From: Escherichia coli | GTDB taxonomy: Bacteria; Pseudomonadota; Gammaproteobacteria; Enterobacterales; Enterobacteriaceae | Assembly: GCF_041886205.1 (NCBI RefSeq) | Contig: NZ_CP169029.1 | Length of the DNA: 64,000 nt | Reading direction: 5' to 3' (one strand) | Shown here: positions 1,761-48,678 of the stretch, in pieces | Position numbering within the stretch: the stretch's first letter is position 1 | How the letters are laid out: every line of letters begins with the position of its first letter | Translations under genes and position numbers: made by a program | Notes under the pieces: model-generated | Database searches by the model: none | Told to the model about the DNA's origin: nothing | Seen by the model: the letters and a program-made list of their open reading frames with translations, nothing else

Positions 1761-1978
1761 GAAACCATCCTTCATTTCAGCGCGTGTATAAAACGCGCCC
1801 ACTGAACTGCACTGCCCAACATTGAGCGGGCAGCGTAAAAACCAATACAGAATTGATACCTGGATGATATCAAATATCCAGTCTTAAATTGTGGCCTTTA
1901 ACAGAAAAATGAAAACATATGCTACAGAATGGCGCTTATCACGCCATTCTTCGCTGTTAATTCAGTAATTTTTCAGAA

Positions 1979-2956
1979 TTATGCCCGGTCAACGCTAAAG
2001 GCGATGACTTCAGCCAGTGTCTCCGCGCCCAGCGCCAACATCACCAGACGATCAACGCCTAATGCCACGCCGGAACAGTCAGGCATACCGACTTTCAAGG
2101 CTTCAATCAGATTCTGGTCAATGGGGTGCTGCGGCAAACCACGCGCCGCTCGCTTACGGTTATCTTGTTCAAAGCGTTGTTGCTGCTCACGGGCATCCGT
2201 CAATTCATGGAAACCATTCGCCAGCTCAATACCTTTATAATAAACCTCAAAGCGTTCAGCGACCCGATGATCTTCGGTACTGATTTGCGCCAGTGATGCC
2301 TGGCTGGCTGGAAAGTGGTACACAAAGGTCGGTTTTTCTTTACCAATATTTGGCTCTACGCCAAAGGTAAACAGCAATTGTAGCAACGTGTCGCGGTCTT
2401 CTTCGGTATCAGCAACGTTGCTCAAATCCAGTTTCGCTGCCACTTCCCGCAGTTGCGTTTTGTCGGCAGAGAGTGGGTCAATTTCCAGATAACGCAAGAA
2501 AGCTTGTTGATAAGAAAGGCTTTCTGCTGCCGGGCAGTCCAGCACCTGTTGTAAGAGATCGTCCACCTCGTTCATCAACCGGTACATATCATAGTGCGGT
2601 CGATACCACTCAAGCATAGTGAACTCAGGGTTGTGATAACGCCCCATCTCTTCATTACGGAAGCTGCGGCACAGCTGGAATACTGGCCCACAACCAGCAA
2701 CCAGCAGGCGTTTCATATGGTATTCAGGGCTGGTCATTAACCAGAGATTCATCCCCTGCGAATGCCCGGGGCCAACGAAACGTGTCTCAAACGGGACCAA
2801 ATGAATATCGGTTACCGTCGCCTGGCTCATACAAGGCGTCTCCACCTCCAGCACTCCACGATCGGCAAAGAAACGACGGATCTCCGCCATAATCGCCGCG
2901 CGTTTTAATAAGTTAGGAATGGATGCGCTCGGCTGCCAGGATGCCGTTTCGCTCAT
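1979..2956 (-). CDS. epmA: EF-P Lys34 beta-lysyltransferase (class II LysRS paralog)
   Basis: 340-aa ORF, 325-aa product from Met [10 protein letters not shown]...; class II aaRS-like motifs; synteny between yjeM and frdA. Confidence 0.9.
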
Positions 2957-3133
2957 AGTTAAATCTCCAGTTTTTGACAAGGGCACGAAGTCTACTCGCA
3001 ACGCGACGGCGAGACAAATTTTACGCAGGAATAAAACAACGGTGGGCAGTGACTAAAAAAAGCACGATCTGATGGTTTAGTAATTAAATTAATCATCTTC
3101 AGTGATAATTTAGCCCTCTTGCGCACTAAAAAA

Positions 3134-3147
3134 ATCGATCTCGTCAA
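3134..3147 (+). promoter_or_regulatory. FNR-type binding site (TCGATctcgTCAAA) upstream of frdA
   Basis: near-palindromic TTGAT-N4-ATCAA-like motif about 135 bp upstream of frdA GTG start; frd is a classical FNR-activated operon. Confidence 0.5.
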
Positions 3148-3280
3148 ATTTCAGACTTATCCATCAGACTATACTGTTGTACCTATAAAGGAGCAGTGGA
3201 ATAGCGTTCGCAGACCGTAACTTTCAGGCACTTACCCTGAAGTACGGGGCTGTGGGATAAAAACAATCTGGAGGAATGTC

Positions 3281-5081
3281 GTGCAAACCTTTCAAGCCGA
3301 TCTTGCCATTGTAGGCGCCGGTGGCGCGGGATTACGTGCTGCAATTGCTGCCGCGCAGGCAAATCCAAATGCAAAAATCGCACTAATCTCAAAAGTATAC
3401 CCGATGCGTAGCCATACCGTTGCTGCAGAAGGGGGCTCCGCCGCTGTCGCGCAGGATCATGACAGCTTCGAATATCACTTTCACGATACAGTAGCGGGTG
3501 GCGACTGGTTGTGTGAGCAGGATGTCGTGGATTATTTCGTCCACCACTGCCCCACCGAAATGACCCAACTGGAACTGTGGGGGTGCCCATGGAGCCGTCG
3601 CCCGGATGGTAGCGTCAACGTACGTCGCTTCGGCGGCATGAAAATCGAGCGTACCTGGTTCGCCGCCGATAAGACCGGCTTCCATATGCTGCACACGCTG
3701 TTCCAGACCTCTCTGCAATTCCCGCAGATCCAGCGTTTTGACGAACATTTCGTGCTGGATATTCTGGTTGATGATGGTCATGTTCGCGGCCTGGTAGCAA
3801 TGAACATGATGGAAGGCACGCTGGTGCAGATCCGTGCTAACGCGGTCGTTATGGCTACCGGCGGTGCGGGTCGCGTTTATCGTTACAACACCAACGGCGG
3901 CATCGTTACCGGTGACGGTATGGGTATGGCGCTAAGCCACGGCGTTCCGCTGCGTGACATGGAATTCGTTCAGTATCACCCAACCGGTCTGCCAGGTTCC
4001 GGTATCCTGATGACCGAAGGCTGCCGTGGTGAAGGCGGTATTCTGGTCAACAAAAATGGCTACCGTTATCTGCAAGATTACGGCATGGGCCCGGAAACTC
4101 CGCTGGGCGAGCCGAAAAACAAATATATGGAACTGGGTCCACGCGACAAAGTTTCTCAGGCCTTCTGGCACGAATGGCGTAAAGGCAACACCATCTCCAC
4201 GCCGCGTGGTGATGTGGTTTATCTCGACCTGCGTCACCTCGGCGAGAAAAAACTGCATGAACGTCTGCCGTTCATCTGCGAACTGGCGAAAGCGTACGTT
4301 GGCGTCGATCCGGTTAAAGAACCGATTCCGGTACGTCCGACCGCACACTACACCATGGGCGGTATCGAAACCGATCAGAACTGTGAAACCCGCATTAAAG
4401 GTCTGTTCGCCGTGGGTGAATGTTCCTCTGTTGGTCTGCACGGTGCAAACCGTCTGGGTTCTAACTCCCTGGCGGAACTGGTGGTCTTCGGCCGTCTGGC
4501 CGGTGAACAAGCGACAGAGCGTGCAGCAACTGCCGGTAATGGCAACGAAGCGGCAATTGAAGCGCAGGCAGCTGGCGTTGAACAACGTCTGAAAGATCTG
4601 GTTAACCAGGATGGCGGCGAAAACTGGGCGAAGATCCGCGACGAAATGGGTCTGGCTATGGAAGAAGGCTGCGGTATCTACCGTACGCCGGAACTGATGC
4701 AGAAAACCATCGACAAGCTGGCAGAGCTGCAGGAACGCTTCAAGCGCGTGCGCATCACCGACACTTCCAGCGTGTTCAACACCGACCTGCTCTACACCAT
4801 TGAACTGGGCCACGGTCTGAACGTTGCTGAATGTATGGCACACTCCGCAATGGCACGTAAAGAGTCCCGCGGCGCACACCAGCGTCTGGACGAAGGTTGC
4901 ACCGAGCGTGACGACGTCAACTTCCTCAAACACACCCTCGCCTTCCGCGATGCTGATGGCACGACTCGCCTGGAGTACAGCGACGTGAAGATTACTACGC
5001 TGCCGCCAGCTAAACGCGTTTACGGTGGCGAAGCGGATGCAGTCGATAAGGCGGAAGCAGCCAATAAGAAGGAGAAGGCGA

Positions 5082-5089: not shown

Positions 5090-6222
<1,133 letters not shown>

Positions 6223-6232
6223 GGAGCCTGAG

Positions 6233-7788
<1,556 letters not shown>

Positions 7789-9947: not shown

Positions 9948-10976
9948 ATGGCGCATATTGTAACCCTAAATACCCCATCCAGAGAAGATTGGTTAACGCA
10001 ACTTGCCGATGTTGTGACCGATCCTGATGAACTTCTGCGTCTTTTGAATATAGACGCGGACGAAAAACTGTTGGCCGGACGCAACGCCAAAAAGCTGTTT
10101 GCCCTGCGTGTGCCCCGCTCATTTATCGATCGCATGGAGAAAGGCAATCCGGACGATCCGCTTTTGCGTCAGGTACTTACCTCGCAAGATGAGTTTGCCA
10201 TCGCGCCCGGATTCTCCACCGACCCGCTGGAAGAACAGCACAGCGTAGTGCCTGGTTTGTTGCATAAATACCACAACCGGGCGCTTTTGCTGGTCAAAGG
10301 CGGCTGCGCGGTAAATTGCCGTTATTGCTTCCGTCGCCACTTCCCTTATGCCGAAAATCAGGGCAACAAGCGTAACTGGCAAACTGCACTTGAGTATGTT
10401 GCTGCGCATCCGGAACTGGACGAGATGATTTTCTCCGGCGGCGATCCGCTGATGGCGAAAGATCACGAGCTGGACTGGTTGCTCACACAACTGGAAGCCA
10501 TCCCGCATATCAAACGTCTGCGGATTCACAGTCGTCTGCCGATTGTGATCCCGGCACGCATCACAGATGCGCTGGTTGAACGCTTTTCACATTCTACGCT
10601 GCAAATCTTGCTGGTGAATCACATCAACCATGCCAATGAGATAGATGAAACATTCCGTCAGGCGATGGCTAAGTTGCGCCGGGCGGGCGTTACTTTGCTG
10701 AACCAGAGCGTTCTGTTACGTGGTGTGAACGATAACGCACAAACGCTGGCAAACCTGAGTAATGCGTTGTTCGATGCCGGCGTGATGCCGTATTACCTGC
10801 ATGTGCTCGATAAAGTACAGGGCGCGGCGCATTTTATGGTGAGTGATGACGAAGCACGGCAGATTATGCGTGAGTTGCTGACACTGGTGTCCGGATATCT
10901 GGTGCCGAAACTGGCGCGAGAAATTGGCGGCGAACCCAGCAAAACGCCGCTGGATCTCCAGCTACGCCAGCAGTAA
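9948..10976 (+). CDS. epmB: EF-P lysine 2,3-aminomutase (radical SAM)
   Basis: 342-aa ORF; CxxxCxxC radical-SAM motif (CAVNCRYCFRRHF); divergent from efp. Confidence 0.95.
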   Translation: MAHIVTLNTPSREDWLTQLADVVTDPDELLRLLNIDADEKLLAGRNAKKLFALRVPRSFIDRMEKGNPDDPLLRQVLTSQDEFAIAPGFSTDPLEEQHSVVPGLLHKYHNRALLLVKGGCAVNCRYCFRRHFPYAENQGNKRNWQTALEYVAAHPELDEMIFSGGDPLMAKDHELDWLLTQLEAIPHIKRLRIHSRLPIVIPARITDALVERFSHSTLQILLVNHINHANEIDETFRQAMAKLRRAGVTLLNQSVLLRGVNDNAQTLANLSNALFDAGVMPYYLHVLDKVQGAAHFMVSDDEARQIMRELLTLVSGYLVPKLAREIGGEPSKTPLDLQLRQQ

Positions 10977-11008
10977 CTGATTAAACAGGGAAGTCAAAAA
11001 TTAAAATT

Positions 11009-11112
<104 letters not shown>

Positions 11113-11370
11113 CAACAAACGCAAGTACAGCAACCTGTCATTAAACTGGGAAGTTTAATCTTTGCCCGTTGCATAACCTTTAATTATTCATATGCATTGC
11201 TGTTGTTACTTTTTATATAGCTAACACCAATAATTAACCTTTCTTTTCTGTTTATATAGAGTGAGCACGGCTATTTATGTTATTTTAACAACTATTACTA
11301 CCAAGCCCATTTATCTGGCTTATAAATTAAAATTAATTATTTAATTGAGAAATGGTTAGGGAGAACCTAC

Positions 11371-12240
11371 ATGGCCATAAGCATCAAGGGTGTTAATACC
11401 GGTGTTATTCGCAAGAGTAATAATTTCATTGCAATGGCGCTGAAAATTAAAGAACCTCGCAATAAAGAATCGTTGTTCTTTATGTCTGTCATGGAACTGC
11501 GCGACCTGCTGATTGCGCTGGAAAGTCGTCTGCATCAAAAGCATAAACTGGATGCTGCTGCACGCCTTCAGTATGAGCAAGCTCGCGATAAAGTCATTAA
11601 GAAAATGGCAGAAAACATCCCAGAAATTCTGGTTGATGAGCTTAAAAATGCCGATATTAATCGTCGGGTTAACACGCTGGAACTTACCGATAATCAAGGC
11701 GAAAATCTTACCTTCGTATTAACGCTACATGACGGTAGCAAATGTGAGTTAGTCGTCAATGAGTTGCAGATTGAAATGCTGGCGCGAGCAATCATTCATG
11801 CAATTAATAATGCGGAAATGCGTGAACTGGCATTACGTATTACCTCACTGTTAGATTTCCTGCCGTTATATGACGTTGACTGCCAGGAAAATGGCAATCT
11901 GGAATATGACACCTATTCCCAACCGGAATGGAAACATAACCTGTTCGACCATTATCTGGCGGTGCTTTACCGCTTTAAAGATGAAAGTGGCAAAGAACAA
12001 TTTAGCGGCGCAGTGGTGAAAACGCGTGAAGCAACGCCGGGTAAAGAAATAGAGGCGATCACTCGCCGAATGCTTGATTTCAGCCCACGACTGAAAAAAC
12101 TCGCGGGTGTGCCATGTCAGGTCTATGTTCGCACCGTAGCGGCGAATAACGCCCAACCGCTAACCCAGGATCAATGCTTACGCGCGCTGCATCACTTACG
12201 TGTTCAATCCACCAGCAAAACTGCACCACAGGCGAAATAA
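11371..12240 (+). CDS. yjeJ: uncharacterized protein YjeJ
   Basis: 289-aa ORF; AT-rich gene with very AT-rich upstream region; synteny between epmB and yjeI. Confidence 0.8.
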   Translation: MAISIKGVNTGVIRKSNNFIAMALKIKEPRNKESLFFMSVMELRDLLIALESRLHQKHKLDAAARLQYEQARDKVIKKMAENIPEILVDELKNADINRRVNTLELTDNQGENLTFVLTLHDGSKCELVVNELQIEMLARAIIHAINNAEMRELALRITSLLDFLPLYDVDCQENGNLEYDTYSQPEWKHNLFDHYLAVLYRFKDESGKEQFSGAVVKTREATPGKEIEAITRRMLDFSPRLKKLAGVPCQVYVRTVAANNAQPLTQDQCLRALHHLRVQSTSKTAPQAK

Positions 12241-12299
12241 TCTCATCTTTGCTAATGCGAGGCTGGAGCCATCCAGCCTGAAATGACTGATAACGTGAT

Positions 12300-12400
<101 letters not shown>

Positions 12401-12432
12401 CCTCTGGCAATTATACGTTTGTCACCATCACA

Positions 12433-12786
12433 TCAGTTCGGGCACTTATAAACCTGACCGATAATCTGGCTATCCGTCGGGACAAAACTGGACAACATTC
12501 CCTGCGACGGGCTGCTGATGCCATAAATCACGTTACCGCCCATTGCAGCCGCCTGGTTGCGCAGATCGTTTGCTGCGCCGCGCATAGAACCGCCCTCTTC
12601 TCCGTGTTGCCCGGAAAGCCAGTTGCTTTGCTTACCTGTCGCAGTACCAATCAGCTGGCACTCTGCGCCTGGCTGCTCGTCCACAATGCGTACACTCTGA
12701 CCGGCAGCACTCAATTCGTTGCTGGAGCTACAACCCGCCATCAGTAGCGCGGCACCGACAATCCCTGATAAGTATTTTACGTGCAT
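12433..12786 (-). CDS. yjeI: uncharacterized lipoprotein YjeI
   Basis: 117 aa from MHVKYLSGIVGAALLMAGCSS; lipobox; synteny next to groL. Confidence 0.85.
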   Translation of the reverse strand: MHVKYLSGIVGAALLMAGCSSSNELSAAGQSVRIVDEQPGAECQLIGTATGKQSNWLSGQHGEEGGSMRGAANDLRNQAAAMGGNVIYGISSPSQGMLSSFVPTDSQIIGQVYKCPN

Positions 12787-22286: not shown

Positions 22287-22862
22287 GTGCAACGTGAAGA
22301 TGTACTGGGAGAAGCCCTGAAATTATTAGAATTACAAGGGATTGCCAACACCACGCTGGAGATGGTTGCTGAACGTGTGGATTATCCACTGGACGAGCTA
22401 CGCCGCTTCTGGCCAGACAAAGAGGCAATCCTCTACGATGCGCTGCGTTATCTTAGCCAACAGATAGATGTCTGGCGTCGTCAGCTGATGCTGGACGAAA
22501 CGCAAACCGCCGAACAAAAGCTGCTGGCACGTTATCAGGCGTTATCGGAGTGCGTTAAAAACAACCGCTATCCGGGCTGTCTATTTATCGCTGCCTGTAC
22601 GTTTTATCCCGATCCTGGCCACCCTATTCATCAACTGGCCGATCAGCAAAAAAGCGCGGCCTACGATTTCACCCACGAACTGTTAACCACACTGGAAGTT
22701 GACGATCCGGCGATGGTAGCAAAGCAGATGGAACTGGTGCTGGAAGGCTGTTTAAGCCGAATGCTGGTGAATCGTAGCCAGGCGGATGTCGACACTGCAC
22801 ATCGGCTGGCGGAAGATATCCTGCGCTTCGCCCGCTGCCGCCAGGGTGGTGCATTGACCTGA
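22287..22862 (+). CDS. yjdC: TetR-family transcriptional regulator YjdC
   Basis: 191-aa product, probable GTG start ([12 protein letters not shown]...); N-terminal HTH. Confidence 0.85.
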
Positions 22863-22929
22863 CAGAAACACAGAAAAGAAGCGATTTGCCGCAATCTTAA
22901 GCAGTTGAATCGCTTTTACTGAAATTAGG

Positions 22930-22958
22930 TTGACGAGATGTGCAGATTACGGTTTAAT
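22930..22958 (+). promoter_or_regulatory. pheU tRNA promoter (-35 TTGACG, 17 bp, -10 TTTAAT, GC-rich discriminator)
   Basis: hexamers read at 22930-22935 and 22953-22958, 10 bp upstream of the tRNA 5' end. Confidence 0.65.
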
Positions 22959-22968
22959 GCGCCCCGTT

Positions 22969-23044
22969 GCCCGGATAGCTCAGTCGGTAGAGCAGGGGAT
23001 TGAAAATCCCCGTGTCCTTGGTTCGATTCCGAGTCCGGGCACCA
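22969..23044 (+). tRNA. pheU: tRNA-Phe (GAA anticodon)
   Basis: GCCCGGATAGCTCAGTCGGTAGAGCAGGGGATTGAAAATCCCCGTGTCCTTGGTTCGATTCCGAGTCCGGGCACCA; called pheU rather than pheV from yjdC flank. Confidence 0.97.
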
Positions 23045-23056
23045 AATTCATATCAA

Positions 23057-23082
23057 CGGACCTCCACGGAGGTCCGTTTTTC
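23057..23082 (+). terminator. tRNA-Phe terminator hairpin
   Basis: CGGACCTCC-ac-GGAGGTCCG followed by TTTTTCG. Confidence 0.8.
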
Positions 23083-23241
23083 GTTTCAGAACGCCACAAT
23101 TTAAGCGTTCTACCTACAAATCAATTCTACCGAACTCAACCAGATTCCCCCCACATCAACCCCATTGTGTGGGTATAATTGCGGGCATACCCCAGTTCGA
23201 CAGAATTTGTACCCTCTTTAACGCATTCAGAAGGCTATACT

Positions 23242-24504
23242 ATGGCACTGACTGACGCAAAAATCCGGGCTGCAAAGCCCACTGACAAGGCTTATAAACT
23301 CACTGACGGGGCTGGCATGTTCCTACTGGTTCATCCTAATGGTTCCCGTTACTGGCGTCTCCGTTATCGTATTCTGGGTAAGGAGAAGACTCTGGCACTT
23401 GGTGTGTATCCAGAAGTTTCTCTCTCCGAAGCTCGTACAAAACGGGATGAGGCCCGAAAACTGATTTCGGAGGGGATTGACCCTTGCGAACTGAAAAGAG
23501 CTAAAAAAGTAGTCCCTGATTTACAACTCTCTTTTGAACATATTGCACGACGCTGGCATGCCAGTAATAAACAATGGGCACAATCACACAGCGATAAAGT
23601 ACTCAAAAGCCTCGAGACACACGTTTTCCCCTTTATCGGCAACCGGGATATCACAACACTCAGTACCCCGGACCTGCTTATCCCTGTTCGTGCTGCAGAA
23701 GCTAAACAAATTTATGAAATCGCCAGTCGTCTGCAGCAAAGAATATCTGCTGTAATGCGTTATGCCGTACAGTCTGGCATCATCAGATATAACCCGGCTC
23801 TGGATATGGCTGGTGCATTGACCACGGTAAAACGCCAGCATCGCCCTGCACTGGATCTTTCACGCCTGCCTGAACTTCTGTCGCGTATTGACGGTTATAA
23901 AGGCCAGCCTGTCACCCGACTGGCAGTTATGCTGAATTTACTGGTTTTTATTCGTTCCAGTGAACTCAGATACGCCCGCTGGTCTGAAATTGATATTGAC
24001 AATGCCATGTGGACTATTCCAGCCGAACGCGAACCTCTGCCTGGCGTAAAATTCTCACACCGGGGCTCCAAGATGCGAACACCACATCTTGTGCCACTCA
24101 GCAAACAGGCTGTAGCCATACTGGCAGAACTACAGACATGGGCTGGTGAAAATGGTCTGATCTTTACGGGAGCACATGACCCGCGTAAACCAATCAGTGA
24201 AAATACTGTAAATAAAGCCCTGAGGGTGATGGGGTATGACACAACCCAGGATGTCTGTGGCCATGGATTCCGGGCGATGGCGTGCAGTGCATTGATTGAA
24301 TCAGGTTTGTGGTCCCGCGATGCTGTGGAACGTCAGATGAGCCATCAGGAGCGTAATGGTGTACGTGCTGCGTATATCCATAAAGCAGAACATCTGGAAG
24401 AACGGCGACTGATGTTGCAATGGTGGGCCGATTTTCTGGATGCGAACCGGGAGAAGGGTATCAGTCCGTTTGAATATGCAAAAATTAACAATCCATTAAA
24501 ATAG
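23242..24504 (+). CDS. P4-family tyrosine integrase, tRNA-Phe associated
   Basis: 441-aa ORF, about 420-aa product from MALTDAKIRAAKPTDKAYKLTDGAG; C-terminal catalytic HGFR ... AAYIH (H-x-x-R / Tyr); immediately 3' of tRNA. Confidence 0.88.
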   Translation: MALTDAKIRAAKPTDKAYKLTDGAGMFLLVHPNGSRYWRLRYRILGKEKTLALGVYPEVSLSEARTKRDEARKLISEGIDPCELKRAKKVVPDLQLSFEHIARRWHASNKQWAQSHSDKVLKSLETHVFPFIGNRDITTLSTPDLLIPVRAAEAKQIYEIASRLQQRISAVMRYAVQSGIIRYNPALDMAGALTTVKRQHRPALDLSRLPELLSRIDGYKGQPVTRLAVMLNLLVFIRSSELRYARWSEIDIDNAMWTIPAEREPLPGVKFSHRGSKMRTPHLVPLSKQAVAILAELQTWAGENGLIFTGAHDPRKPISENTVNKALRVMGYDTTQDVCGHGFRAMACSALIESGLWSRDAVERQMSHQERNGVRAAYIHKAEHLEERRLMLQWWADFLDANREKGISPFEYAKINNPLK

Positions 24505-24590
24505 TAAGCAGTCCGGGCAATCAGCCCGGACTGCTGGTGATGCTGCCAACTTACTGATTTAGTGTATGATGGTGTTTTTGAGGTGCTCCA

Positions 24591-24866
24591 GTGGCTTCTG
24601 TTTCTATCAGCTGTCCCTCCTGTTCAGCTACTGACGGGGTGGTACGTAACGGCAAAAGCACCGCCGGACATCAGCGCTATCTCTGCTCTCACTGCCGTAA
24701 AACATGGCAACTGCAGTTCACTTACACCGCTTCTCAACCCGGTACGCACCAGAAAATCATTGATATGGCCATGAATGGCGTTGGATGCCGGGCAACTGCC
24801 CGCATTATGGGCGTTGGCCTCAACACGATTTTACGTCACTTAAAAAACTCAGGCCGCAGTCGGTAA
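24591..24866 (+). CDS. insA: IS1 InsA
   Basis: 91-aa [20 protein letters not shown]...; zinc-finger/HTH protein of IS1. Confidence 0.95.
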
Positions 24867-25288
24867 CCTCGCGCATACAGCCGGGCAGTGACGTCATCGT
24901 CTGCGCGGAAATGGACGAACAGTGGGGCTATGTCGGGGCTAAATCGCGCCAGCGCTGGCTGTTTTACGCGTATGACAGGCTCCGGAAGACGGTTGTTGCG
25001 CACGTATTCGGTGAACGCACTATGGCGACGCTGGAGCGTCTTCTGGGCCTGCTGTCGGCCTTTGAGGTCGTGGTATGGATGACGGATGGCTGGCCGCTTT
25101 ATGAATCACGCCTGAAGGGAGAACTGCACGTTATCAGCAAGCGATATACGCAGCGCATTGAGCGGCATAACCTGAATCTGAGGCAGCATCTGGCAAGGCT
25201 GGGCAGGAAGTCACTGTCGTTCTCAAAATCGGTGGAGCTGCATGACAAAGTTATCGGGCATTATCTGAACATAAAACACTATCAATAA
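24785..25288 (+). CDS. insB: IS1 InsB (expressed as InsAB' transposase by -1 frameshift)
   Basis: 167-aa ORF in -1 frame relative to insA; matches IS1 InsB. Confidence 0.9.
24840..24848 (+). promoter_or_regulatory. IS1 programmed -1 ribosomal frameshift site (TTAAAAAAC)
   Basis: A6C slippery run at the insA/insB overlap. Confidence 0.8.
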
Positions 25289-25354
25289 GTTGGAGTCATT
25301 ACCCGCTTTGCTTTAGCGAGAACTGGTCTTTTATTCGCACTCAGGAGTACATGT

Positions 25355-26116
25355 ATGAGGATTTGCAGCGACCAACCTTGTATTGTTTTATTGACTGAAA
25401 AAGATGTCTGGATAAGGGTGAATGGGAAAGAACCTATTAGCCTTAAAGCTAACCATATGGCGTTATTAAATTGTGAAAATAATATTATCGACGTCTCCTC
25501 TCTTAACAACACTTTGGTTGCTCATATTAGTCACGACATCATCAAAGATTACCTCCGGTTTCTGAATAAAGATCTCTCGCAAATACCAGTATGGCAACGT
25601 AGCGCTACGCCCATACTCACCCTGCCATGCCTGACGCCAGACGTCTTTCGCGTTGCCGCGCAACACAGCATGATGCCCGCAGAAACTGAGTCAGAAAAGG
25701 AACGAACACGCGCATTATTATTCACGGTGCTATCCCGTTTTCTCGACAGTAAAAAATTCGTTTCATTAATGATGTATATGTTACGTAATTGTGTAAGTGA
25801 CAGCGTTTATCAAATTATTGAAAGCGATATTCACAAAGACTGGAATCTTAGTATGGTAGCCAGTTGTTTATGTCTTAGCCCAAGTCTGTTAAAGAAAAAG
25901 TTGAAAAGCGAAAACACCAGTTATAGCCAAATAATCACCACCTGCCGCATGCGTTATGCCGTAAATGAATTAATGATGGACGGTAAAAATATCTCTCAGG
26001 TATCACAGTCCTGCGGCTACAACAGTACGTCGTACTTTATTTCTGTCTTTAAAGACTTCTACGGTATGACGCCGCTGCATTATGTTAGTCAGCACAGAGA
26101 ACGCACTGTCGCCTGA
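25355..26116 (+). CDS. adiY: AraC-family regulator AdiY
   Basis: 253-aa ORF; C-terminal AraC HTH; immediately upstream of adiC. Confidence 0.92.
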   Translation: MRICSDQPCIVLLTEKDVWIRVNGKEPISLKANHMALLNCENNIIDVSSLNNTLVAHISHDIIKDYLRFLNKDLSQIPVWQRSATPILTLPCLTPDVFRVAAQHSMMPAETESEKERTRALLFTVLSRFLDSKKFVSLMMYMLRNCVSDSVYQIIESDIHKDWNLSMVASCLCLSPSLLKKKLKSENTSYSQIITTCRMRYAVNELMMDGKNISQVSQSCGYNSTSYFISVFKDFYGMTPLHYVSQHRERTVA

Positions 26117-33924: not shown

Positions 33925-36149
33925 TATCGTTCTGCCGTGAAAAGTGTTTGAATATCATCGCGTAACAGCTGGGCGTCGGTGTAAATCCAGCCGTGAGTCA
34001 TCACAGTCTGCTGCAATTGCTGCTGCATCAGCCTGACCACCGATTCATTTTGTTGACGCAGAGCCAGACTTTCGCGTAAACGCGTCTGTAATTCCGTCAA
34101 ACATGAAGCGAACTCAGCGAAAAAAGTATTCATGCCTGCCGTAACAGATTCATCGACCTGCTCTGCCAGAACTTTAGCCATTTGTTGGCAATAAAGATCG
34201 ACTTCTGCGCTTAATGCTCGTTGCAACACACTGTAATCAACCGTTTCTGTCGGGGATTTCTCATTTCCCCGTCCCCAGTCAGGCTGATTCAACCAGCGCG
34301 AAAAAGTCTCACGCACAACGCCTAATCGCGTGCTCTGCTCGTCCGTTGCTTCCTGGCGCGAAATGACTTCACTGAACAGCTGGCGAGTGTTGAAGTGGGG
34401 AACTACGCCGTGAAAAACAGGAAAATGAAACCCAGGACGAAACCCTGACTCGCTCAATTCCATTTTGACTTGTTGCTCAATGGGGCGAATAACATCGGTT
34501 AACACCCGGCAAAGGGTGGATTCAAGCTCGGCAAAACGCAGCGTAAAGTCGCGACTGATGGTGTTCTGCGCCGTCTGTAACAGTGTCTCACAGCGGGTAC
34601 GAATCTCGCTTAACGGCTCCGAATCATCCTGAAACAAGGCGGCTAACTGCGCATTCAGCGCATCTTGTTGTTGACGCAGAAAGTGGTTGGCGGAGGTCAG
34701 GGCCAGCTCGATTTCATGTTTAATCTCGCCGCTCACCTGCGCCTGATTGAGTTGCAATAGCTGCAAACTTTCTTCGACCTGATGGATATTTTGCCGCAAT
34801 TGTTCACAAGCGACGTTTAACCCGTGCGCACGAAAATCCAGGTATTCCCGCGCCTGCTGCGCGTAATTCAACAGTTTATGCGCAGCAGATCGCAGAGCAT
34901 ACAACGAGGCGTTAGCGTAAGCGGCATGAAGCAACGCCTGAATTGGCTGGGCGAACAGCGAATCTTCCCACAACTGATCGGCAGCATGACGAATATGTTC
35001 GAGGTCCGCCAGATCGGCATGACGCCAGCGCCTGCCGAGCGCGGCATGGGCAAAATCTTCCACCCAGCGTTGTTGCTCTGGCGCGGGTAACTTACCGTTG
35101 TTGGCTAACTCATGGCGCGCCCGATTCGCCAGGTAGCCCCACATCGACGACACCGGAAATATCTGCTGTGGCGTAATACAGCCTTTCATCAGCGTCCCGG
35201 AAATCAGTGCCCGCACCTGGTCGGCGTCGTCACTGTTACGATCCTGTTGATCGAACTTATTGACCAGCACATACAGCGGCACCGATTGCCCCACCGCCAA
35301 AATCGCCTCACGGACCTCTTCATCGGAGATCGATTTCAGTTGCGTATAATCCAGCACCGCCAGTACCGCCGAGGCGCGTGCCAGCTGCTGGTTAAGCATT
35401 TTTTGCAGATGCGGTTGCCCGGCTTCATTTGGCCCGGGGGTATCCAGTAGCGTCAACTGACCGGGATAACTCTCCAGCCCCGCCAGATGGACAAACTCCA
35501 CTTCAATCACGGGAATATGCTCAATGACGGCGTAAGCAGAAAAAGGAAAATCGACGTCCAGCGCCTTCGCCAGTCGCACTAAATCATTCAAACTTTTCAG
35601 ACAATGAAAAATAGGCTGGGCACCCAGATAATATTTTTCGAAAGCGACGCCATTTTCGATCCGCTGCATAAGCGCACGCATATCTTTATCTATTTCCAGC
35701 ACATCGGTCAGATGCTTAATATCGCAATCACGCAGGCGCTGTTGTAATTGTTGAATTAAACGGTCGATTGGCGCGACATGTGAAAAATGCAGTACCGGTT
35801 CTTTTTGCCCGGGCGTATGGCGAATAAGCGTCGGCAGCGCAGTCATTGGGCGATTACGATTAGGCAGAACCTCCGTACCAACAATGGCATTAATGGTGGT
35901 TGATTTCCCTGCTTTCATGGTACCGACAATTGCAAGCACCATTTCCAGTCGGGAAATTTTACGCAACTCATTATTCAGCATCGCGTGACGTTCGGCGATA
36001 TTAGGCTGACTCCAGGGTAAAGCCAGTTGTGGCGCGTCGTCTCCGGGTACAGAGAGAGACATTTTTTCCAGTAACTGCAACTGTTGGCGAGAAAGCTGTA
36101 ACAGGCGTTCAGCCTCCTGACTTAACTCATACAGGGTCTGTGTGTACAT
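33921..36149 (-). CDS. crfC: dynamin-like GTPase CrfC (YjdA)
   Basis: 742-aa ORF; P-loop GTMKAGKSTTINAIVG; long predicted helical C-terminal region. Confidence 0.9.
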   Translation of the reverse strand: MYTQTLYELSQEAERLLQLSRQQLQLLEKMSLSVPGDDAPQLALPWSQPNIAERHAMLNNELRKISRLEMVLAIVGTMKAGKSTTINAIVGTEVLPNRNRPMTALPTLIRHTPGQKEPVLHFSHVAPIDRLIQQLQQRLRDCDIKHLTDVLEIDKDMRALMQRIENGVAFEKYYLGAQPIFHCLKSLNDLVRLAKALDVDFPFSAYAVIEHIPVIEVEFVHLAGLESYPGQLTLLDTPGPNEAGQPHLQKMLNQQLARASAVLAVLDYTQLKSISDEEVREAILAVGQSVPLYVLVNKFDQQDRNSDDADQVRALISGTLMKGCITPQQIFPVSSMWGYLANRARHELANNGKLPAPEQQRWVEDFAHAALGRRWRHADLADLEHIRHAADQLWEDSLFAQPIQALLHAAYANASLYALRSAAHKLLNYAQQAREYLDFRAHGLNVACEQLRQNIHQVEESLQLLQLNQAQVSGEIKHEIELALTSANHFLRQQQDALNAQLAALFQDDSEPLSEIRTRCETLLQTAQNTISRDFTLRFAELESTLCRVLTDVIRPIEQQVKMELSESGFRPGFHFPVFHGVVPHFNTRQLFSEVISRQEATDEQSTRLGVVRETFSRWLNQPDWGRGNEKSPTETVDYSVLQRALSAEVDLYCQQMAKVLAEQVDESVTAGMNTFFAEFASCLTELQTRLRESLALRQQNESVVRLMQQQLQQTVMTHGWIYTDAQLLRDDIQTLFTAERY

Positions 36150-36549
36150 AGAAAATTCTTCCTTAAAGCAAATTTTGTTATTTTATTTAGCCAGATTGTT
36201 TTTGAGTTCTGTTTTCGGCTTTTATAATTACTGCAAGAAATAATTTTATATTTAGTGTGTTGTTTTTTATCAGAATAAATAACGTCTTCTGATACGTTTA
36301 AAACGTCAGAAAGATAAAAATATCATGTGAATTAAAAAAAGAACAAGTAGAGCATTAACATTATCTTAAATAATAAATAGAGGCAAAAAGATTATTTTCT
36401 TTTTGCGTTTCCTTTCAAATGAAAACGATCGTCGTCTAAAATCAGCAGTACCCCCGACAAACTCAGGGATTTTGTGTATAATTGCGGCCTTTTTCGGCAA
36501 TCTGCCGTTTTTTGGCGCTTTTGCCCTGCTGACTTTTGAGGAAATCCAC

Positions 36550-36885
36550 ATGTCATTACCACACTGCCCAAAATGCAACTCCGAATACACCTACGAAGAT
36601 AACGGCATGTACATCTGCCCGGAATGTGCCTACGAATGGAACGACGCAGAACCTGCACAGGAAAGCGACGAGCTGATCGTTAAAGATGCTAACGGCAATC
36701 TGCTGGCTGACGGCGACAGCGTTACCATCATTAAAGATCTGAAGGTGAAAGGTAGCTCTTCGATGCTGAAAATTGGCACCAAAGTGAAAAACATCCGCCT
36801 GGTTGAAGGCGACCATAACATCGATTGCAAAATCGACGGTTTTGGTCCGATGAAACTGAAATCTGAGTTTGTGAAAAAGAACTGA
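36550..36885 (+). CDS. phnA: phosphonoacetate hydrolase-family zinc-ribbon protein PhnA
   Basis: 111 aa from [19 protein letters not shown]...; CPxCN zinc ribbon. Confidence 0.92.
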
Positions 36886-36899
36886 TTGTATTGTGATCG

Positions 36900-37082
<183 letters not shown>

Positions 37083-37142
37083 TCTCATCTGTATAAATTT
37101 CGAACTACACTTAACTGGCTTCTCTTAACTGAGGTCACCATC

Positions 37143-37586
37143 ATGCCGTTAAGTCCCTACCTCTCTTTTGCCGGTAACTGTTCCGACGCGATTGCCTATT
37201 ATCAACGTACGTTGGGCGCGGAACTGCTCTATAAAATCAGCTTCGGCGAAATGCCAAAATCAGCGCAGGACAGCGCCGAGAACTGCCCTTCCGGAATGCA
37301 ATTTCCCGATACCGCCATCGCTCATGCCAACGTGCGCATTGCCGGAAGCGACATCATGATGAGCGATGCCATGCCGTCAGGAAAAGCCAGCTACTCCGGC
37401 TTTACGCTGGTGCTCGATTCGCAACAGGTCGAAGAAGGAAAACGCTGGTTTGACAATCTTGCCGCTAACGGAAAAATCGAAATGGCCTGGCAGGAAACTT
37501 TCTGGGCGCATGGCTTTGGCAAAGTCACCGATAAATTTGGCGTACCGTGGATGATTAATGTCGTTAAACAACAACCAACGCAATAA
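37143..37586 (+). CDS. phnB: glyoxalase/bleomycin-resistance fold protein PhnB
   Basis: 147-aa ORF; synteny between phnA and phnC. Confidence 0.88.
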   Translation: MPLSPYLSFAGNCSDAIAYYQRTLGAELLYKISFGEMPKSAQDSAENCPSGMQFPDTAIAHANVRIAGSDIMMSDAMPSGKASYSGFTLVLDSQQVEEGKRWFDNLAANGKIEMAWQETFWAHGFGKVTDKFGVPWMINVVKQQPTQ

Positions 37587-37718: not shown

Positions 37719-38507
37719 ATGCAAACGATTATCCGTGTCGAGAAGCTCGCCAAAACCTTCAATCAGCATCAGGCGCTGCATGCGGTTGATCTGAACATTC
37801 ATCACGGTGAAATGGTGGCTCTGCTTGGGCCGTCGGGTTCCGGCAAATCCACCCTTTTACGTCACTTAAGCGGTTTGATTACCGGCGATAAATCCGCCGG
37901 CAGCCATATCGAGCTGCTGGGCCGCACAGTCCAGCGCGAAGGCCGTCTGGCGCGCGATATCCGCAAAAGCCGCGCCAACACCGGCTACATCTTCCAACAA
38001 TTCAACCTGGTGAACCGCCTGAGCGTACTGGAGAACGTGCTGATTGGCGCGCTCGGCAGCACGCCGTTCTGGCGCACCTGTTTTAGCTGGTTTACCCGCG
38101 AGCAGAAACAACGCGCGTTACAGGCGCTGACCCGCGTTGGCATGGTGCATTTTGCCCATCAACGCGTTTCCACCCTCTCCGGCGGACAGCAGCAGCGTGT
38201 GGCGATTGCCCGCGCGCTGATGCAGCAGGCGAAGGTGATTCTGGCCGATGAACCCATCGCCTCGCTGGACCCGGAATCCGCCCGCATCGTGATGGACACC
38301 CTGCGCGACATCAATCAGAACGACGGCATCACCGTGGTCGTCACGCTGCATCAGGTGGATTACGCCCTGCGCTACTGCGAACGCATCGTCGCCCTGCGCC
38401 AGGGGCACGTTTTCTACGACGGCAGCAGCCAACAGTTTGATAACGAACGTTTTGACCATCTCTACCGCAGCATTAATCGCATCGAAGAGAACGCGAAAGC
38501 TGCCTGA
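37719..38507 (+). CDS. phnC: phosphonate ABC transporter ATPase
   Basis: 262 aa; Walker [10 protein letters not shown], signature LSGGQQQR. Confidence 0.96.
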
Positions 38508-38531
38508 CATCCCCATCATTGAGGAAAACGA

Positions 38532-39548
38532 ATGAACGCTAAGATAATTGCCTCGCTGGCCTTCACCAGCATGTTCAGCCTCAGCACCCTGTTAAGCCCG
38601 GCACACGCCGAAGAGCAGGAAAAGGCGCTGAATTTCGGCATTATTTCAACGGAATCACAGCAAAACCTGAAACCGCAATGGACGCCATTCTTACAGGATA
38701 TGGAGAAGAAGCTGGGCGTGAAGGTGAACGCCTTCTTTGCCCCAGACTACGCAGGCATTATCCAGGGAATGCGCTTCAATAAAGTGGATATCGCCTGGTA
38801 CGGCAACCTGTCGGCAATGGAAGCGGTGGATCGCGCCAACGGCCAGGTCTTCGCTCAGACCGTCGCGGCGGACGGATCGCCGGGTTACTGGAGCGTGTTG
38901 ATCGTCAACAAAGATAGTCCGATCAACAACCTGAACGATCTGCTGGCGAAGCGGAAAGATCTCACCTTCGGCAATGGCGATCCTAACTCCACCTCTGGCT
39001 TCCTCGTCCCCGGTTACTACGTCTTTGCCAAAAACAATATCTCCGCCAGCGACTTCAAGCGCACCGTCAACGCCGGGCATGAAACCAACGCGCTGGCCGT
39101 CGCCAACAAGCAGGTGGATGTTGCCACCAACAACACCGAAAACCTCGACAAGCTGAAAACCTCCGCGCCAGAGAAGCTGAAAGAACTGAAGGTGATCTGG
39201 AAGTCGCCGCTGATCCCAGGCGATCCGATCGTCTGGCGCAAGAATCTTTCCGAAACCACCAAAGACAAGATCTACGACTTCTTTATGAACTACGGCAAAA
39301 CGCCGGAAGAAAAAGCGGTGCTGGAACGCCTGGGCTGGGCGCCATTCCGCGCTTCCAGCGACCTGCAACTGGTGCCGATTCGCCAGCTCGCGCTGTTTAA
39401 AGAGATGCAGGGCGTGAAAAGCAATAAAGGACTGAATGAGCAGGACAAGCTGGCAAAAACCACCGAGATTCAGGCGCAGCTGGATGACCTGGACCGCCTG
39501 AACAACGCGCTAAGCGCGATGAGTTCGGTGAGTAAAGCGGTGCAGTAA
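38532..39548 (+). CDS. phnD: phosphonate ABC transporter periplasmic binding protein
   Basis: 338 aa; signal peptide. Confidence 0.96.
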   Translation: MNAKIIASLAFTSMFSLSTLLSPAHAEEQEKALNFGIISTESQQNLKPQWTPFLQDMEKKLGVKVNAFFAPDYAGIIQGMRFNKVDIAWYGNLSAMEAVDRANGQVFAQTVAADGSPGYWSVLIVNKDSPINNLNDLLAKRKDLTFGNGDPNSTSGFLVPGYYVFAKNNISASDFKRTVNAGHETNALAVANKQVDVATNNTENLDKLKTSAPEKLKELKVIWKSPLIPGDPIVWRKNLSETTKDKIYDFFMNYGKTPEEKAVLERLGWAPFRASSDLQLVPIRQLALFKEMQGVKSNKGLNEQDKLAKTTEIQAQLDDLDRLNNALSAMSSVSKAVQ

Positions 39549-39550
39549 AT

Positions 39551-39640
39551 CGTAGGTCGGATAAGACGCCCCGGCGTCGCATCCGACAATGTGCAGGCGT
39601 TGATGCCGGATGCGGTGCAAGCACCTTATCCGGCCTACAG
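39551..39640. repeat. REP units between phnD and phnE
   Basis: GTAGGTCGGATAAGACGC...GCATCCGACA and GCCGGATGCGG...CTTATCCGGCCTAC. Confidence 0.85.
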
Positions 39641-39653
39641 ACCGGAGCCAAAC

Positions 39654-40433
39654 ATGCAAACCATCACCATCGCCCCACCCAAGCGCAGCTGGTTCTCGCT
39701 TCTGAGCTGGGCCGTTGTTCTCGCCGTGCTGGTCGTCTCGTGGCAGGGCGCGGAAATGGCCCCGCTCACGCTGATTAAAGACGGCGGCAACATGGCAACC
39801 TTCGCTGCCGACTTCTTCCCGCCCGATTTCAGCCAGTGGCAGGATTACCTCACCGAAATGGCCGTCACGCTGCAAATCGCCGTCTGGGGCACCGCGCTGG
39901 CGGTGGTTCTCTCCATCCCCTTTGGCCTGATGAGCGCCGAAAACCTGGTGCCGTGGTGGGTTTACCAGCCCGTTCGCCGCCTGATGGACGCCTGCCGCGC
40001 CATTAACGAAATGGTCTTCGCCATGCTGTTCGTGGTCGCCGTCGGTCTCGGACCGTTCGCTGGCGTGCTGGCGCTATTTATCCACACCACCGGCGTGCTC
40101 TCCAAGCTGCTTTCCGAAGCGGTAGAAGCAATTGAACCTGGCCCGGTGGAAGGCATTCGCGCCACCGGTGCCAACAAGCTCGAAGAGATCCTCTACGGCG
40201 TGCTGCCACAGGTGATGCCACTGCTGATCTCCTACTCCCTCTATCGCTTCGAATCCAACGTCCGCTCGGCGACCGTCGTCGGCATGGTCGGCGCAGGCGG
40301 GATCGGCGTCACCCTGTGGGAAGCGATTCGCGGTTTCCAGTTCCAACAAACCTGCGCCCTGATGGTGCTTATCATCGTCACGGTCAGCCTGCTGGATTTC
40401 CTCTCTCAACGGTTGCGTAAGCACTTTATCTGA
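39654..40433 (+). CDS. phnE: phosphonate ABC transporter permease (uninterrupted reading frame)
   Basis: 259 aa from [17 protein letters not shown]...; polytopic permease; continuous ORF. Confidence 0.88.
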
Positions 40434-40453
40434 TAAGCGAGGCATTGATATCT

Positions 40454-41179
40454 ATGCACTTGTCTACACATCCGACCAGCTACCCAACACGCTATCAAGA
40501 GATAGCCGCAAAACTTGAGCAGGAGCTTCGTCAACACTACCGCTGCGGCGACTATCTTCCCGCCGAGCAGCAACTGGCAGCGCGCTTTGAGGTGAATCGC
40601 CACACCCTGCGCCGCGCCATCGACCAACTGGTGGAAAAAGGCTGGGTACAGCGCCGTCAGGGCGTCGGCGTGCTGGTGCTGATGCGCCCGTTCGATTACC
40701 CGCTCAACGCCCAGGCGCGTTTTAGCCAGAATCTGCTGGATCAGGGCAGCCATCCCACCAGCGAAAAACTGCTTTCGGTATTGCGCCCCGCGTCCGGCCA
40801 CGTCGCTGACGCACTGGGGATTACCGAGGGGGAGAACGTCATCCACCTGCGCACCCTGCGTCGTGTCAACGGCGTCGCGCTCTGTTTAATCGACCACTAC
40901 TTCGCGGACCTCACCCTCTGGCCGACGCTGCAACGCTTCGACAGCGGCTCGCTGCACGATTTTCTGCGCGAGCAAACCGGAATTGCGCTGCGCCGCAGCC
41001 AGACGCGGATCAGCGCCCGCCGCGCCCAGGCCAAAGAGTGCCAGCGTCTTGAAATCCCGAATATGTCGCCGCTGCTGTGCGTGCGCACCCTTAACCACCG
41101 TGACGGTGAAAGCAGCCCGGCGGAGTACTCCGTCAGCCTGACGCGCGCCGACATGATTGAATTCACTATGGAGCACTGA
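40454..41179 (+). CDS. phnF: GntR-family repressor PhnF
   Basis: 241 aa from MHLSTHPTSYPTRYQEIAAKLEQ... Confidence 0.93.
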   Translation: MHLSTHPTSYPTRYQEIAAKLEQELRQHYRCGDYLPAEQQLAARFEVNRHTLRRAIDQLVEKGWVQRRQGVGVLVLMRPFDYPLNAQARFSQNLLDQGSHPTSEKLLSVLRPASGHVADALGITEGENVIHLRTLRRVNGVALCLIDHYFADLTLWPTLQRFDSGSLHDFLREQTGIALRRSQTRISARRAQAKECQRLEIPNMSPLLCVRTLNHRDGESSPAEYSVSLTRADMIEFTMEH

Positions 41180-41632
41180 ATGCACGCAGATACCGCGACC
41201 CGCCAGCACTGGATGTCCGTGCTGGCGCACAGCCAACCGGCTGAACTGGCAGCACGCCTGAACGCGCTAAACATCACCGCCGACTATGAGGTGATCCGCG
41301 CCGCTGAAACTGGCCTGGTACAGATTCAGGCGCGGATGGGCGGCACCGGCGAACGTTTTTTTGCCGGCGACGCCACGCTGACCCGCGCCGCCGTGCGCCT
41401 GACTGACGGCACGCTCGGCTACAGCTGGGTGCAGGGGCGTGATAAACAGCACGCCGAACGCTGCGCGCTGATTGACGCGCTGATGCAGCAATCTCGCCAC
41501 TTTCAAAACTTATCAGAAACCCTTATTGCCCCGCTGGACGCTGACCGTATGGCACGCATTGCCGCACGCCAGGCCGAAGTGAACGCCAGCCGGGTCGACT
41601 TCTTTACGATGGTTCGCGGAGACAACGCATGA
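41180..41632 (+). CDS. phnG: C-P lyase core complex subunit PhnG
   Basis: 150 aa; operon position. Confidence 0.93.
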
Positions 41633-44870: not shown

Positions 44871-44960
<90 letters not shown>

Positions 44961-44980
44961 CCCGAACCACGAGGCGAAAA

Positions 44981-47772: not shown

Positions 47773-47773
47773 C

Positions 47774-48532: not shown

Positions 48533-48540
48533 TGAGAGGG

Positions 48541-48660: not shown

Positions 48661-48678
48661 CCTGCTCCATACCCAACC

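Follow-up and report, generated by a model that had tools for sequence, protein, structure and literature searches.

The H-NS-bound Escherichia coli gene yjeJ as a probable survivor of an old AT-rich island that carries microcin-type genes in related enterobacteria

Introduction

In Escherichia coli, yjeJ lies between epmB and yjeI, in the gene order ampC-blc-sugE-ecnBA-efp-epmB-yjeJ-yjeI-groL-groS-yjeH. Both the gene and the spacer in front of it are more AT-rich than the genes around them, which raises the question of where yjeJ came from, whether H-NS silences it and what its product may do. The locus was analysed in a 64-kb stretch of E. coli DNA (contig NZ_CP169029.1), here called the window, and positions are counted from its first letter unless K-12 coordinates are named. 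An earlier note on this DNA had described yjeJ and the region upstream as typical of anciently acquired, H-NS-silenced DNA that is flanked on both sides by clusters of repetitive extragenic palindromic (REP) sequences and bacterial interspersed mosaic elements (BIMEs). The locus is 99.9% identical to that of E. coli strain 6EVA, where the open reading frame (ORF) is annotated as yjeJ, and it is carried by 5382 of 5426 complete E. coli genomes (99%).

Our analysis favours the view, with a probability of about 0.65, that positions ~11151-12240, comprising the AT-rich spacer and yjeJ, are the surviving end-piece of an old AT-rich island at the epmB-yjeI junction, bound by H-NS. In Klebsiella, Entomohabitans, Scandinavium and Budvicia, the full island runs from fimbrial genes through class II microcin-type peptides, an HlyD adaptor and a C39 exporter to YjeJ. 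Escherichia, Citrobacter and Atlantibacter would have retained a solo paralog alone, with its own promoter. As far as we have searched, the link of YjeJ to a microcin-type island is new.

YjeJ closes a microcin-type cassette in related lineages

In a neighbour-joining tree of the family, a "solo" clade (Escherichia, Citrobacter, Atlantibacter and Scandinavium copy B) stands apart from a "cassette" clade. Seven lineages of the latter were examined, namely K. grimontii, K. pneumoniae, K. quasipneumoniae, Entomohabitans, Scandinavium, Budvicia and one metagenome lineage, and in all seven a C39-peptidase ABC exporter precedes YjeJ by 10-31 nt. The order of the cassette is a chaperone-usher fimbrial operon, one to three small peptide genes, an HlyD-type adaptor, the C39 ABC exporter and YjeJ. 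Downstream sequence was available for six of these lineages, and in five of them the unit adjoins yjeI-groL-groS-yjeH-fxsA-aspA, the place that yjeJ occupies in E. coli. Scandinavium carries both YjeJ copies at this locus, with a gene for a GerE-type regulator between them and the second paralog beside yjeI. The island is also distinct in composition, as the K. grimontii cassette has a GC content of 0.37-0.41, compared with 0.55-0.56 for the flanking yjeI and groL. Taken together, the solo yjeJ of E. coli is probably a survivor of such an island, as judged from gene order and tree position.

The small genes of the cassette code for peptides of 101-122 aa with double-glycine leaders (MKELTVFEMEQIAAG, MRELSVFEMNEIAGG, MKRLTNEEMGQIEGG) and Gly-rich hydrophobic cores. 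These peptides reach 26.6 bits against Bacteriocin_IIc, just below the cutoff of 27.1, and match MccV weakly. The exporter matches the models of peptide cleavage/export ABC proteins with E values of 1e-100 to 1e-142, below the equivalog cutoffs. A double-glycine peptide, an HlyD adaptor and a C39 exporter in one operon were found in the related loci and not in the window, and an antibacterial role of the peptides is putative. The cassette peptides and YjeJ were not found in the supplements and full text of the microcin surveys that we searched. In Entomohabitans (locus 1789-3491), three tandem genes for Gly-rich peptides with double-glycine leaders are present, the third of which a frameshift has broken into parts of 68 aa and 36 aa; the repeated intergenic blocks between these copies indicate a recent tandem duplication.

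The related loci resemble class II microcin clusters such as that of MccV (cvaC, cvi, cvaA, cvaB), in which a Gly-rich double-glycine peptide, an HlyD/CvaA adaptor and a CvaB-type exporter likewise share one operon. In contrast to the MccV cluster, the minimal cassettes show no evident small membrane immunity gene and end instead in a conserved soluble YjeJ of ~285 aa. The cassette also differs in its constant linkage to a chaperone-usher fimbrial operon and in the length of its peptides. The E. coli locus departs further from the MccV arrangement, as everything but a YjeJ paralog appears to have been lost.

A small, patchy and fast-evolving family

The only Pfam family matched by YjeJ is PF15922 ("YjeJ-like"), with 578.5 bits against a cutoff of 27 over residues 1-283/283. 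Among 1.84 billion representative proteins, this family forms 97 clusters at 50% identity, with ~25 full-length members. All members with a named source belong to the Enterobacterales and come from Escherichia, Citrobacter, Atlantibacter, Scandinavium, Entomohabitans, several Klebsiella species, Budvicia and Serratia plasmids. Such a patchy spread over few clusters, with copies on plasmids and within an AT-rich island of other genera, is evidence of a horizontal origin. A scan of species genomes with the YjeJ protein alone returned Escherichia only, plus two contaminated assemblies: the proteins in NZ_ABFU01000112.1 ("Bacillus coahuilensis") and DAAV01000145.1 (a "Bacteroidales" metagenome-assembled genome) are 98-99% identical to that of E. 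coli and are almost certainly E. coli contamination.

The order epmB-yjeJ-yjeI-groL is common to Escherichia, Citrobacter and two Atlantibacter species. YjeJ is 74% identical between E. coli and Citrobacter, where the neighbouring proteins share 90-98%, and the identities in the two Atlantibacter species are 43% and 34%, the former compared with 76-97% for the neighbours. The orthologs retain the compositional dip; the Citrobacter gene, for example, has a GC content of 0.417 against 0.52-0.53 in its flanks. The ratio of non-synonymous to synonymous substitution rates (dN/dS) of yjeJ is 0.04-0.13 within Escherichia; against E. albertii it is 0.050, close to the 0.061 of epmB, which indicates that yjeJ is functional. 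In the latter comparison, dS of yjeJ is 0.70, whereas the adjacent efp, epmB and yjeI give 0.31-0.41, and against Citrobacter dN is 0.197, compared with 0.013-0.055 for the neighbours. The gene changes at 4-15 times the rate of its neighbours while being under purifying selection, and its rates are raised at synonymous as well as non-synonymous sites. The dS of yjeJ is nearly twice that of epmB and yjeI (0.39-0.41), in line with reports that DNA bound by H-NS diversifies faster.

Synteny in three genera, a small and patchy family, plasmid-borne members and an AT-rich island at the same locus elsewhere support an ancient acquisition of yjeJ, as the earlier note had proposed.

Base composition is atypical while codon adaptation is normal

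The GC content of yjeJ is 0.452, lower than that of epmB (0.530), yjeI (0.556), groL (0.532) and the whole window (0.527). It rises along the gene, from 0.414 through 0.434 to 0.507 in successive thirds from 5' to 3', and the final 240 nt reach 52-53% (90-nt steps). The spacer at 11151-11370 is far more extreme, with a GC content of 0.286 (0.27th percentile among windows of 220 nt), and it is among just four stretches of the 64 kb with a GC content ≤0.32. The whole of 11160-12240 has a GC content of 0.421 (1.4th percentile), and yjeJ alone stands at the 7.6th percentile among 870-nt windows. The statement that yjeJ is more AT-rich than epmB and groL and is preceded by very AT-rich DNA is borne out, and both upstream strings quoted for it are present; the word "markedly", however, suits the spacer better than the gene.

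Codon usage gives a different picture. Among the 39 genes of the window, yjeJ has the lowest GC content at third codon positions (GC3 0.448; z -1.9, or -2.7 without the GC-rich phn operon) and the second lowest at second positions (GC2 0.328). In contrast, its GC1 (0.579), its effective number of codons (Nc, 45.6) and its codon adaptation index (CAI, 0.43; rank 19 of 39) are ordinary. With K-12 ribosomal-protein genes, tufA and fusA as the reference, the neighbours epmB (0.41) and yjeI (0.44) have a CAI close to that of yjeJ, and the K-12 gsp genes, taken as H-NS-silenced references, reach 0.23-0.39. The atypical codon usage or low adaptation of xenogeneic DNA is therefore not seen in yjeJ, while an AT content above that of neighbouring core genes is. 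The proposed check of GC content and codon adaptation came out divided, in that GC and GC3 are low and CAI is normal.

The phn operon (phnC onward, 37719-49000) is the GC-rich extreme of the window, with a GC content of 0.55-0.63 and a GC3 of 0.71-0.79, and it inflated the window mean, which was our first yardstick for yjeJ. The GC-rich 38-49 kb had been considered as foreign DNA, a candidate that was rejected as the stretch is this operon.

These results bear on an alternative in which yjeJ is a native core gene and not foreign, its low GC content arising from the amino acids of its product (many K, N, I, L, E) and from weak selection on a gene with poor expression. The spacer would be no more than a promoter and regulatory region, bound by H-NS opportunistically like many other native AT-rich promoters. 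The mid-range CAI and Nc, the normal GC1, the presence in 5382 of 5426 genomes and the dN/dS of 0.05 are consistent with such an origin. Protein composition does contribute, as the low GC2 indicates, and many of the published H-NS regions lie at native loci (Table S3 of PMC3688515). However, GC3 is free of amino-acid constraint and is still the lowest of all 39 genes, and a native gene would have to be reconciled with only 97 patchy clusters, all of the named members being from Enterobacterales and some plasmid-borne, with homologs that other genera carry at this locus inside a strongly AT-rich island, and with the 4-15-fold rate. On this balance, we regard a native origin as distinctly unlikely.

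H-NS binds the locus without silencing it fully

H-NS binding in E. coli MG1655 has been mapped by chromatin immunoprecipitation on microarrays (ChIP-chip) by Myers et al. 2013 (PMC3688515; coordinates U00096.2). Table S3 of that work lists the regions 4,371,080-4,373,040 (aerobic, 1,960 bp) and 4,371,104-4,373,178 (anaerobic, 2,074 bp), both of the "extended" class (>1 kb) that the authors find anti-correlated with RNA polymerase occupancy. An offset of +1,977 was used to convert U00096.2 to NC_000913.3 and was checked with the paper's landmarks frdA/poxA, yjeH/groS, aspA/fxsA and sugE, all four of which land in the correct intergenic region after the shift. The shifted regions take in yjeJ and the 394-nt spacer completely, and they extend over the last ~105 nt of yjeI on one side and over the final ~390-530 nt of epmB on the other. 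These are K-12 data mapped over to the window, which is 98.5% identical to K-12. The published H-NS data thus place an H-NS region of ~2 kb over yjeJ and its promoter in vivo, with and without oxygen.

For the epmB-yjeJ spacer, a constitutive sigma-70 promoter in vitro has been reported by genomic systematic evolution of ligands by exponential enrichment (SELEX; PMC3946193). Our consensus promoter scan returned nothing on the + strand of the spacer, since the reported promoter is too weak to pass. The YjeJ protein has been quantified in wild-type K-12 grown in LB (PMC9508795), and yjeJ is reported to be Nac-regulated, with a level that falls in long nitrogen starvation. The yjeJ region is therefore bound by H-NS and probably dampened. 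Its richness in A+T and in TpA steps lets H-NS polymerise over ~2 kb that comprise the promoter, yjeJ and short adjoining parts of epmB and yjeI, as the ChIP-chip data show. In the mechanism that we propose, H-NS would dampen the weak constitutive sigma-70 promoter (TTAACC-17-TAGAGT) without abolishing it, and IHF and Nac would be further inputs on yjeJ. Of the earlier wording "H-NS-silenced", the binding stands, while silencing is partly contradicted by the protein in LB, the constitutive promoter in vitro, the nitrogen response and the normal CAI.

A stronger version of silencing would make yjeJ a fully silenced, decaying cryptic gene. Extended H-NS regions such as the one over yjeJ are anti-correlated with RNA polymerase occupancy, and occasional truncated or insertion sequence (IS)-disrupted alleles exist; both points favour this view. 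Against this stand the dN/dS of 0.04-0.13 in Escherichia, the ORF that is intact in 99% of genomes, the protein quantified in LB and the transcript that responds to nitrogen starvation. Selection and proteomics data have already largely refuted this explanation, and we consider it hardly credible.

In its composition and H-NS binding, the locus is in itself ordinary for E. coli, and the H-NS data were already in public ChIP tables. It resembles other H-NS-bound xenogeneic islets of K-12, such as the extended regions at cadBA and gadW-gadX, in its AT-richness, its ~2 kb of H-NS occupancy in two conditions, its patchy phylogeny and its elevated substitution rate. In contrast to these islets, it consists of a single gene, which 99% of E. 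coli genomes carry and which is syntenic in three genera; it is not fully silent, its CAI is normal, and it has no H-NS site by SELEX or high-affinity motif.

Predicted structure and plasmid relatives of YjeJ

An AlphaFold2 model of YjeJ, built on an alignment of 25 sequences, had a mean predicted local distance difference test (pLDDT) score of 93.3 and a predicted template modelling (pTM) score of 0.88. It is composed of modules with strands at residues 2-38 and a helix at 40-58, strands at 99-130 and a helix at 131-147, strands at 163-218 and a helix at 225-237, and a C-terminal strand and helix. At two positions, W187 and K217, all sequences of the alignment agree. The protein has a pI of 8.25 and a charge near neutral (40 K+R vs 38 D+E), and no transmembrane segment was found (no 19-aa window >1.23, Kyte-Doolittle).

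Foldseek gave no significant match for this model, the Pur-alpha entries having the highest probability at an E value of 0.05. The model thus describes YjeJ as a soluble two-domain protein of beta-sheet-plus-helix modules with Pur-alpha as its best structural match. Compared with the PUR repeat of Pur-alpha (Whirly-like fold, PDB 3k44), the identity is 11%, the Foldseek match is non-significant and is without profile-level homology, and YjeJ differs by extra helices at 62-81 and 151-159. Searches with YjeJ of the PDB by sequence and by family profile gave no match, the viral fold library gave no significant match to the model, and NCBIfam gave no credible match. When 25 members were compared with anti-phage and phage families, PADLOC returned one weak match in a single member and PHROGs one weak match in each of two members, none of them consistent. 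The remote-homology and structure check suggested for YjeJ thus yielded a confident model and no significant fold or profile match.

Relatives of YjeJ are also found on plasmids. On ~30-kb E. coli plasmids (pLAU-OXA4, NZ_CP045281.1, locus 6144-7492), a 163-aa protein is encoded 28 nt after parF-parG and aligns to YjeJ residues 8-159, i.e. to the N-terminal domain alone. Judged by its position, its gene may belong to the partition operon as the third member. In Serratia plasmids, a full-length YjeJ copy is found in the maintenance region.

Possible functions

As its most likely role, we tentatively propose that YjeJ would be a cytoplasmic accessory of an exported-peptide system, serving in self-protection or binding nucleic acid as a regulator, with the E. 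coli copy as an orphan; we regard this as possible rather than probable.

In the first form, YjeJ would be an orphan self-protection (immunity-type) protein directed against its own Gly-rich exported peptide, and the solo copy of E. coli would resist the peptides of neighbours. The terminal position of YjeJ and its close coupling to the exporter in 7/7 cassettes suggest such a role, as do the minimal Scandinavium and Budvicia cassettes, which lack a conventional small transmembrane immunity ORF. Fast divergence under purifying selection, tandem paralogs and the retention of yjeJ after loss of the peptide and exporter genes point the same way and resemble the orphan immunity genes of bacteriocin, contact-dependent inhibition (CDI) and colicin systems, in which a lone gene is kept after the toxin or export genes are lost and paralog arrays occur. 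However, the validated immunity proteins of class II microcins are at most 216 aa long, membrane-embedded and encoded next to the microcin gene (PMC12219008). YjeJ, with 289 aa in E. coli (~285 aa in general), exceeds this size, is soluble with no transmembrane helix and lies two genes (adaptor and exporter) away from the peptide gene, which E. coli does not have at all; the plasmid forms stand in partition or maintenance regions without a peptide gene nearby. An immunity role is therefore putative, and we consider it rather unlikely.

In the second form, YjeJ would be a PUR/Whirly-like protein that binds nucleic acid. Carried along with AT-rich mobile DNA, it would control the genes of cassettes or plasmids as a regulator or as a nucleoid-associated factor. 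The predicted fold and the plasmid partition context are the leads to this function, which has to be set against a Foldseek search without significant match, no sequence-profile link to the PDB, internal repeats that are not significant and a near-neutral net charge. This role, too, appears improbable, to much the same degree as immunity.

A broader and doubtful possibility, with slightly better prospects than either specific role, is that YjeJ would be the fourth component of a widespread enterobacterial unit of fimbriae and exported Gly-rich peptide. It would be a soluble, PUR-like protein of two domains, its N-terminal domain would have been borrowed by plasmids next to parFG, and the E. 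coli copy would be an orphan. Such a component might shield the producer cytoplasm from the precursor or mature peptide, or bind nucleic acid to control the unit.

Points that weigh against the proposed origin

Several observations weigh against the reading of yjeJ as an island survivor with such a function. Whether the island came first and was reduced, or a solo gene came first and was captured later, is judged from an unbootstrapped neighbour-joining tree with long branches, so that the direction of change is inferred. A tblastn search of the E. coli spacer for relics of the adaptor, exporter and peptide genes found none, and the ABC matches elsewhere in the window are the phn transporter genes. 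The island is reconstructed from the lineages of the solo and cassette clades named above. A foreign origin has the ordinary CAI and Nc against it, as well as the core-like spread of yjeJ, which is found in 99% of E. coli genomes. Concerning H-NS, the spacer is without an H-NS flag in genomic SELEX, though nearby cadB and adiA are flagged (PMC3946193); the spacer contains no copy of the high-affinity H-NS motif TCGATAAATT with up to 2 mismatches allowed; and a literature search gave no hns-mutant expression value for yjeJ, which is also absent from the filtered set of orthologs in the tables of Higashi 2016. On the protein side, the Pur-alpha match is modest (Foldseek E 0.05, without a PDB profile match), an hhalign comparison of the three beta-alpha modules of YjeJ with each other was not significant, and the usual traits of microcin immunity proteins (small, membrane-embedded, beside the peptide gene) are missing. 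The gene itself is functional, given strong purifying selection and the detected protein, and yet fast-evolving.

REP/BIME elements are later insertions

The REP/BIME elements on both sides of yjeJ were confirmed (Table 1), with REP cores at 11095-11107 and 12310-12322; the whole window holds 13 cores, compared with 0.74 expected. Both BIMEs are a 120-nt inverted pair with REP consensus palindromes in intergenic DNA. Their canonical REP cores, head-to-head pairs and place after convergent or tandem genes are as in other elements of this type. Nothing in them is unusual, except that the 120-nt inverted pair brackets yjeJ and that empty-site alleles prove both insertions. Rfam naRNA4 (RF02564) matched the BIMEs below threshold at 11077-11166 and 12305-12340 (43.6 and 40.4 bits, gathering cutoff 59.5), and these matches to a REP-derived nucleoid-associated RNA most likely reflect REP homology only.

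E. coli strain AVS0969 lacks both BIMEs while its AT-rich core is ~97% identical, and the BIMEs are not present in the Citrobacter locus. Within 10977-11150, the upstream BIME is bracketed by an imperfect direct repeat of ~27 nt, CAGCAGTAACTGATTAAACAGGGAAGT and CAGCAACCTGTCATTAAACTGGGAAGT, of which AVS0969 has a single copy, and the downstream BIME of K-12 has CCAGCCT on both sides. From the sequences, these repeats look like target duplications upon BIME insertion. Because the BIMEs are absent in Citrobacter and variable among E. coli strains, we regard them as later, polymorphic insertions that are unrelated to the acquisition of yjeJ and do not mark it. The inverted BIME pair was also considered as the ends of a mobile cassette and rejected, as the empty-site alleles lose each element separately with the AT-rich core intact. 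In some E. coli strains, IS621 (IS110 family) and/or IS1 is inserted at the locus, in one case splitting yjeJ. IS621 targets REP sequences.

Other features of the locus and the window

Table 1. Features at the yjeJ locus, in window positions
Feature	Position	Strand	Remarks
yjeJ coding sequence	11371..12240	+	289 aa; soluble alpha/beta protein, PF15922; from AlphaFold model, dN/dS and absence of a transmembrane segment
Contiguous AT-rich block	11151..12000	.	Spacer and first ~630 nt of yjeJ; 39-44% GC (90-nt windows)
AT-rich promoter/leader of yjeJ	11151..11370	+	28.6% GC; TpA steps 3x enriched; inside the H-NS ChIP-chip region
H-NS-enriched region	10450..12548	.	From K-12 ChIP-chip, approximate (+/- 10 nt plus array resolution); PMC3688515 Table S3
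IHF-enriched region	11402..11815	.	Anaerobic ChIP-chip, K-12 4,371,813-4,372,226; PMC3688515 Table S4; in the 5' half of yjeJ
Sigma-70 promoter TTAACC-17-TAGAGT	11234..11262	+	String located here; "constitutive" by genomic SELEX, PMC3946193
GC-rich hairpin GAGGCTGGAGCCATCCAGCCT	12259..12279	+	Just after the yjeJ stop; read from sequence; probable terminator stem without T run
Upstream BIME	10997..11116	.	Two REPs head to head, right after the epmB stop; insertion polymorphism
Downstream BIME	12301..12420	.	Inverted relative to the upstream BIME; insertion polymorphism

The hairpin after yjeJ is kept in the strain without BIMEs, with compensatory changes in the loop region; a terminator scan did not call it.

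Elsewhere in the window, at 22862-25355, dicD and the tRNA-Phe gene pheU (22969-23044) are followed by an integrase fragment and IS1, and then directly by adiY. A block of ~23 kb, cadCBA-dtpC-lysU-ghoST-dcuSR-dcuB-fumB-melAB-adiA, is present in strain 6EVA and missing from the window near pheU. Loss of cadA is a known pathoadaptive deletion of Shigella and enteroinvasive E. coli (EIEC). The other three of the most AT-rich 220-nt stretches (GC ≤0.32) lie at 36061-36490, ~49421-49650 and 61291-61580, the first being the divergent crfC-yjdM spacer. The aerobic H-NS region 4,346,161-4,348,921 (Table S3, PMC3688515) would map to ~34,700-37,470, over this spacer.

Conclusions

The value of this analysis lies in its comparative result, by which a core gene of E. 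coli can be related, as a solo paralog, to the gene that closes a microcin-type export island at the same junction. The yjeJ locus also illustrates neatly how an old foreign gene can stay AT-rich, bound by H-NS and fast-evolving under purifying selection. The genomic context, the confident structure model and the single-domain relatives on plasmids together make the function of YjeJ testable. YjeJ may represent a non-canonical accessory or immunity factor that was missed by microcin searches, which seek small membrane proteins only. If it is indeed the fourth component of the fimbriae and peptide unit, the orphan of E. coli would alter the response to peptides from gut Klebsiella and relatives.

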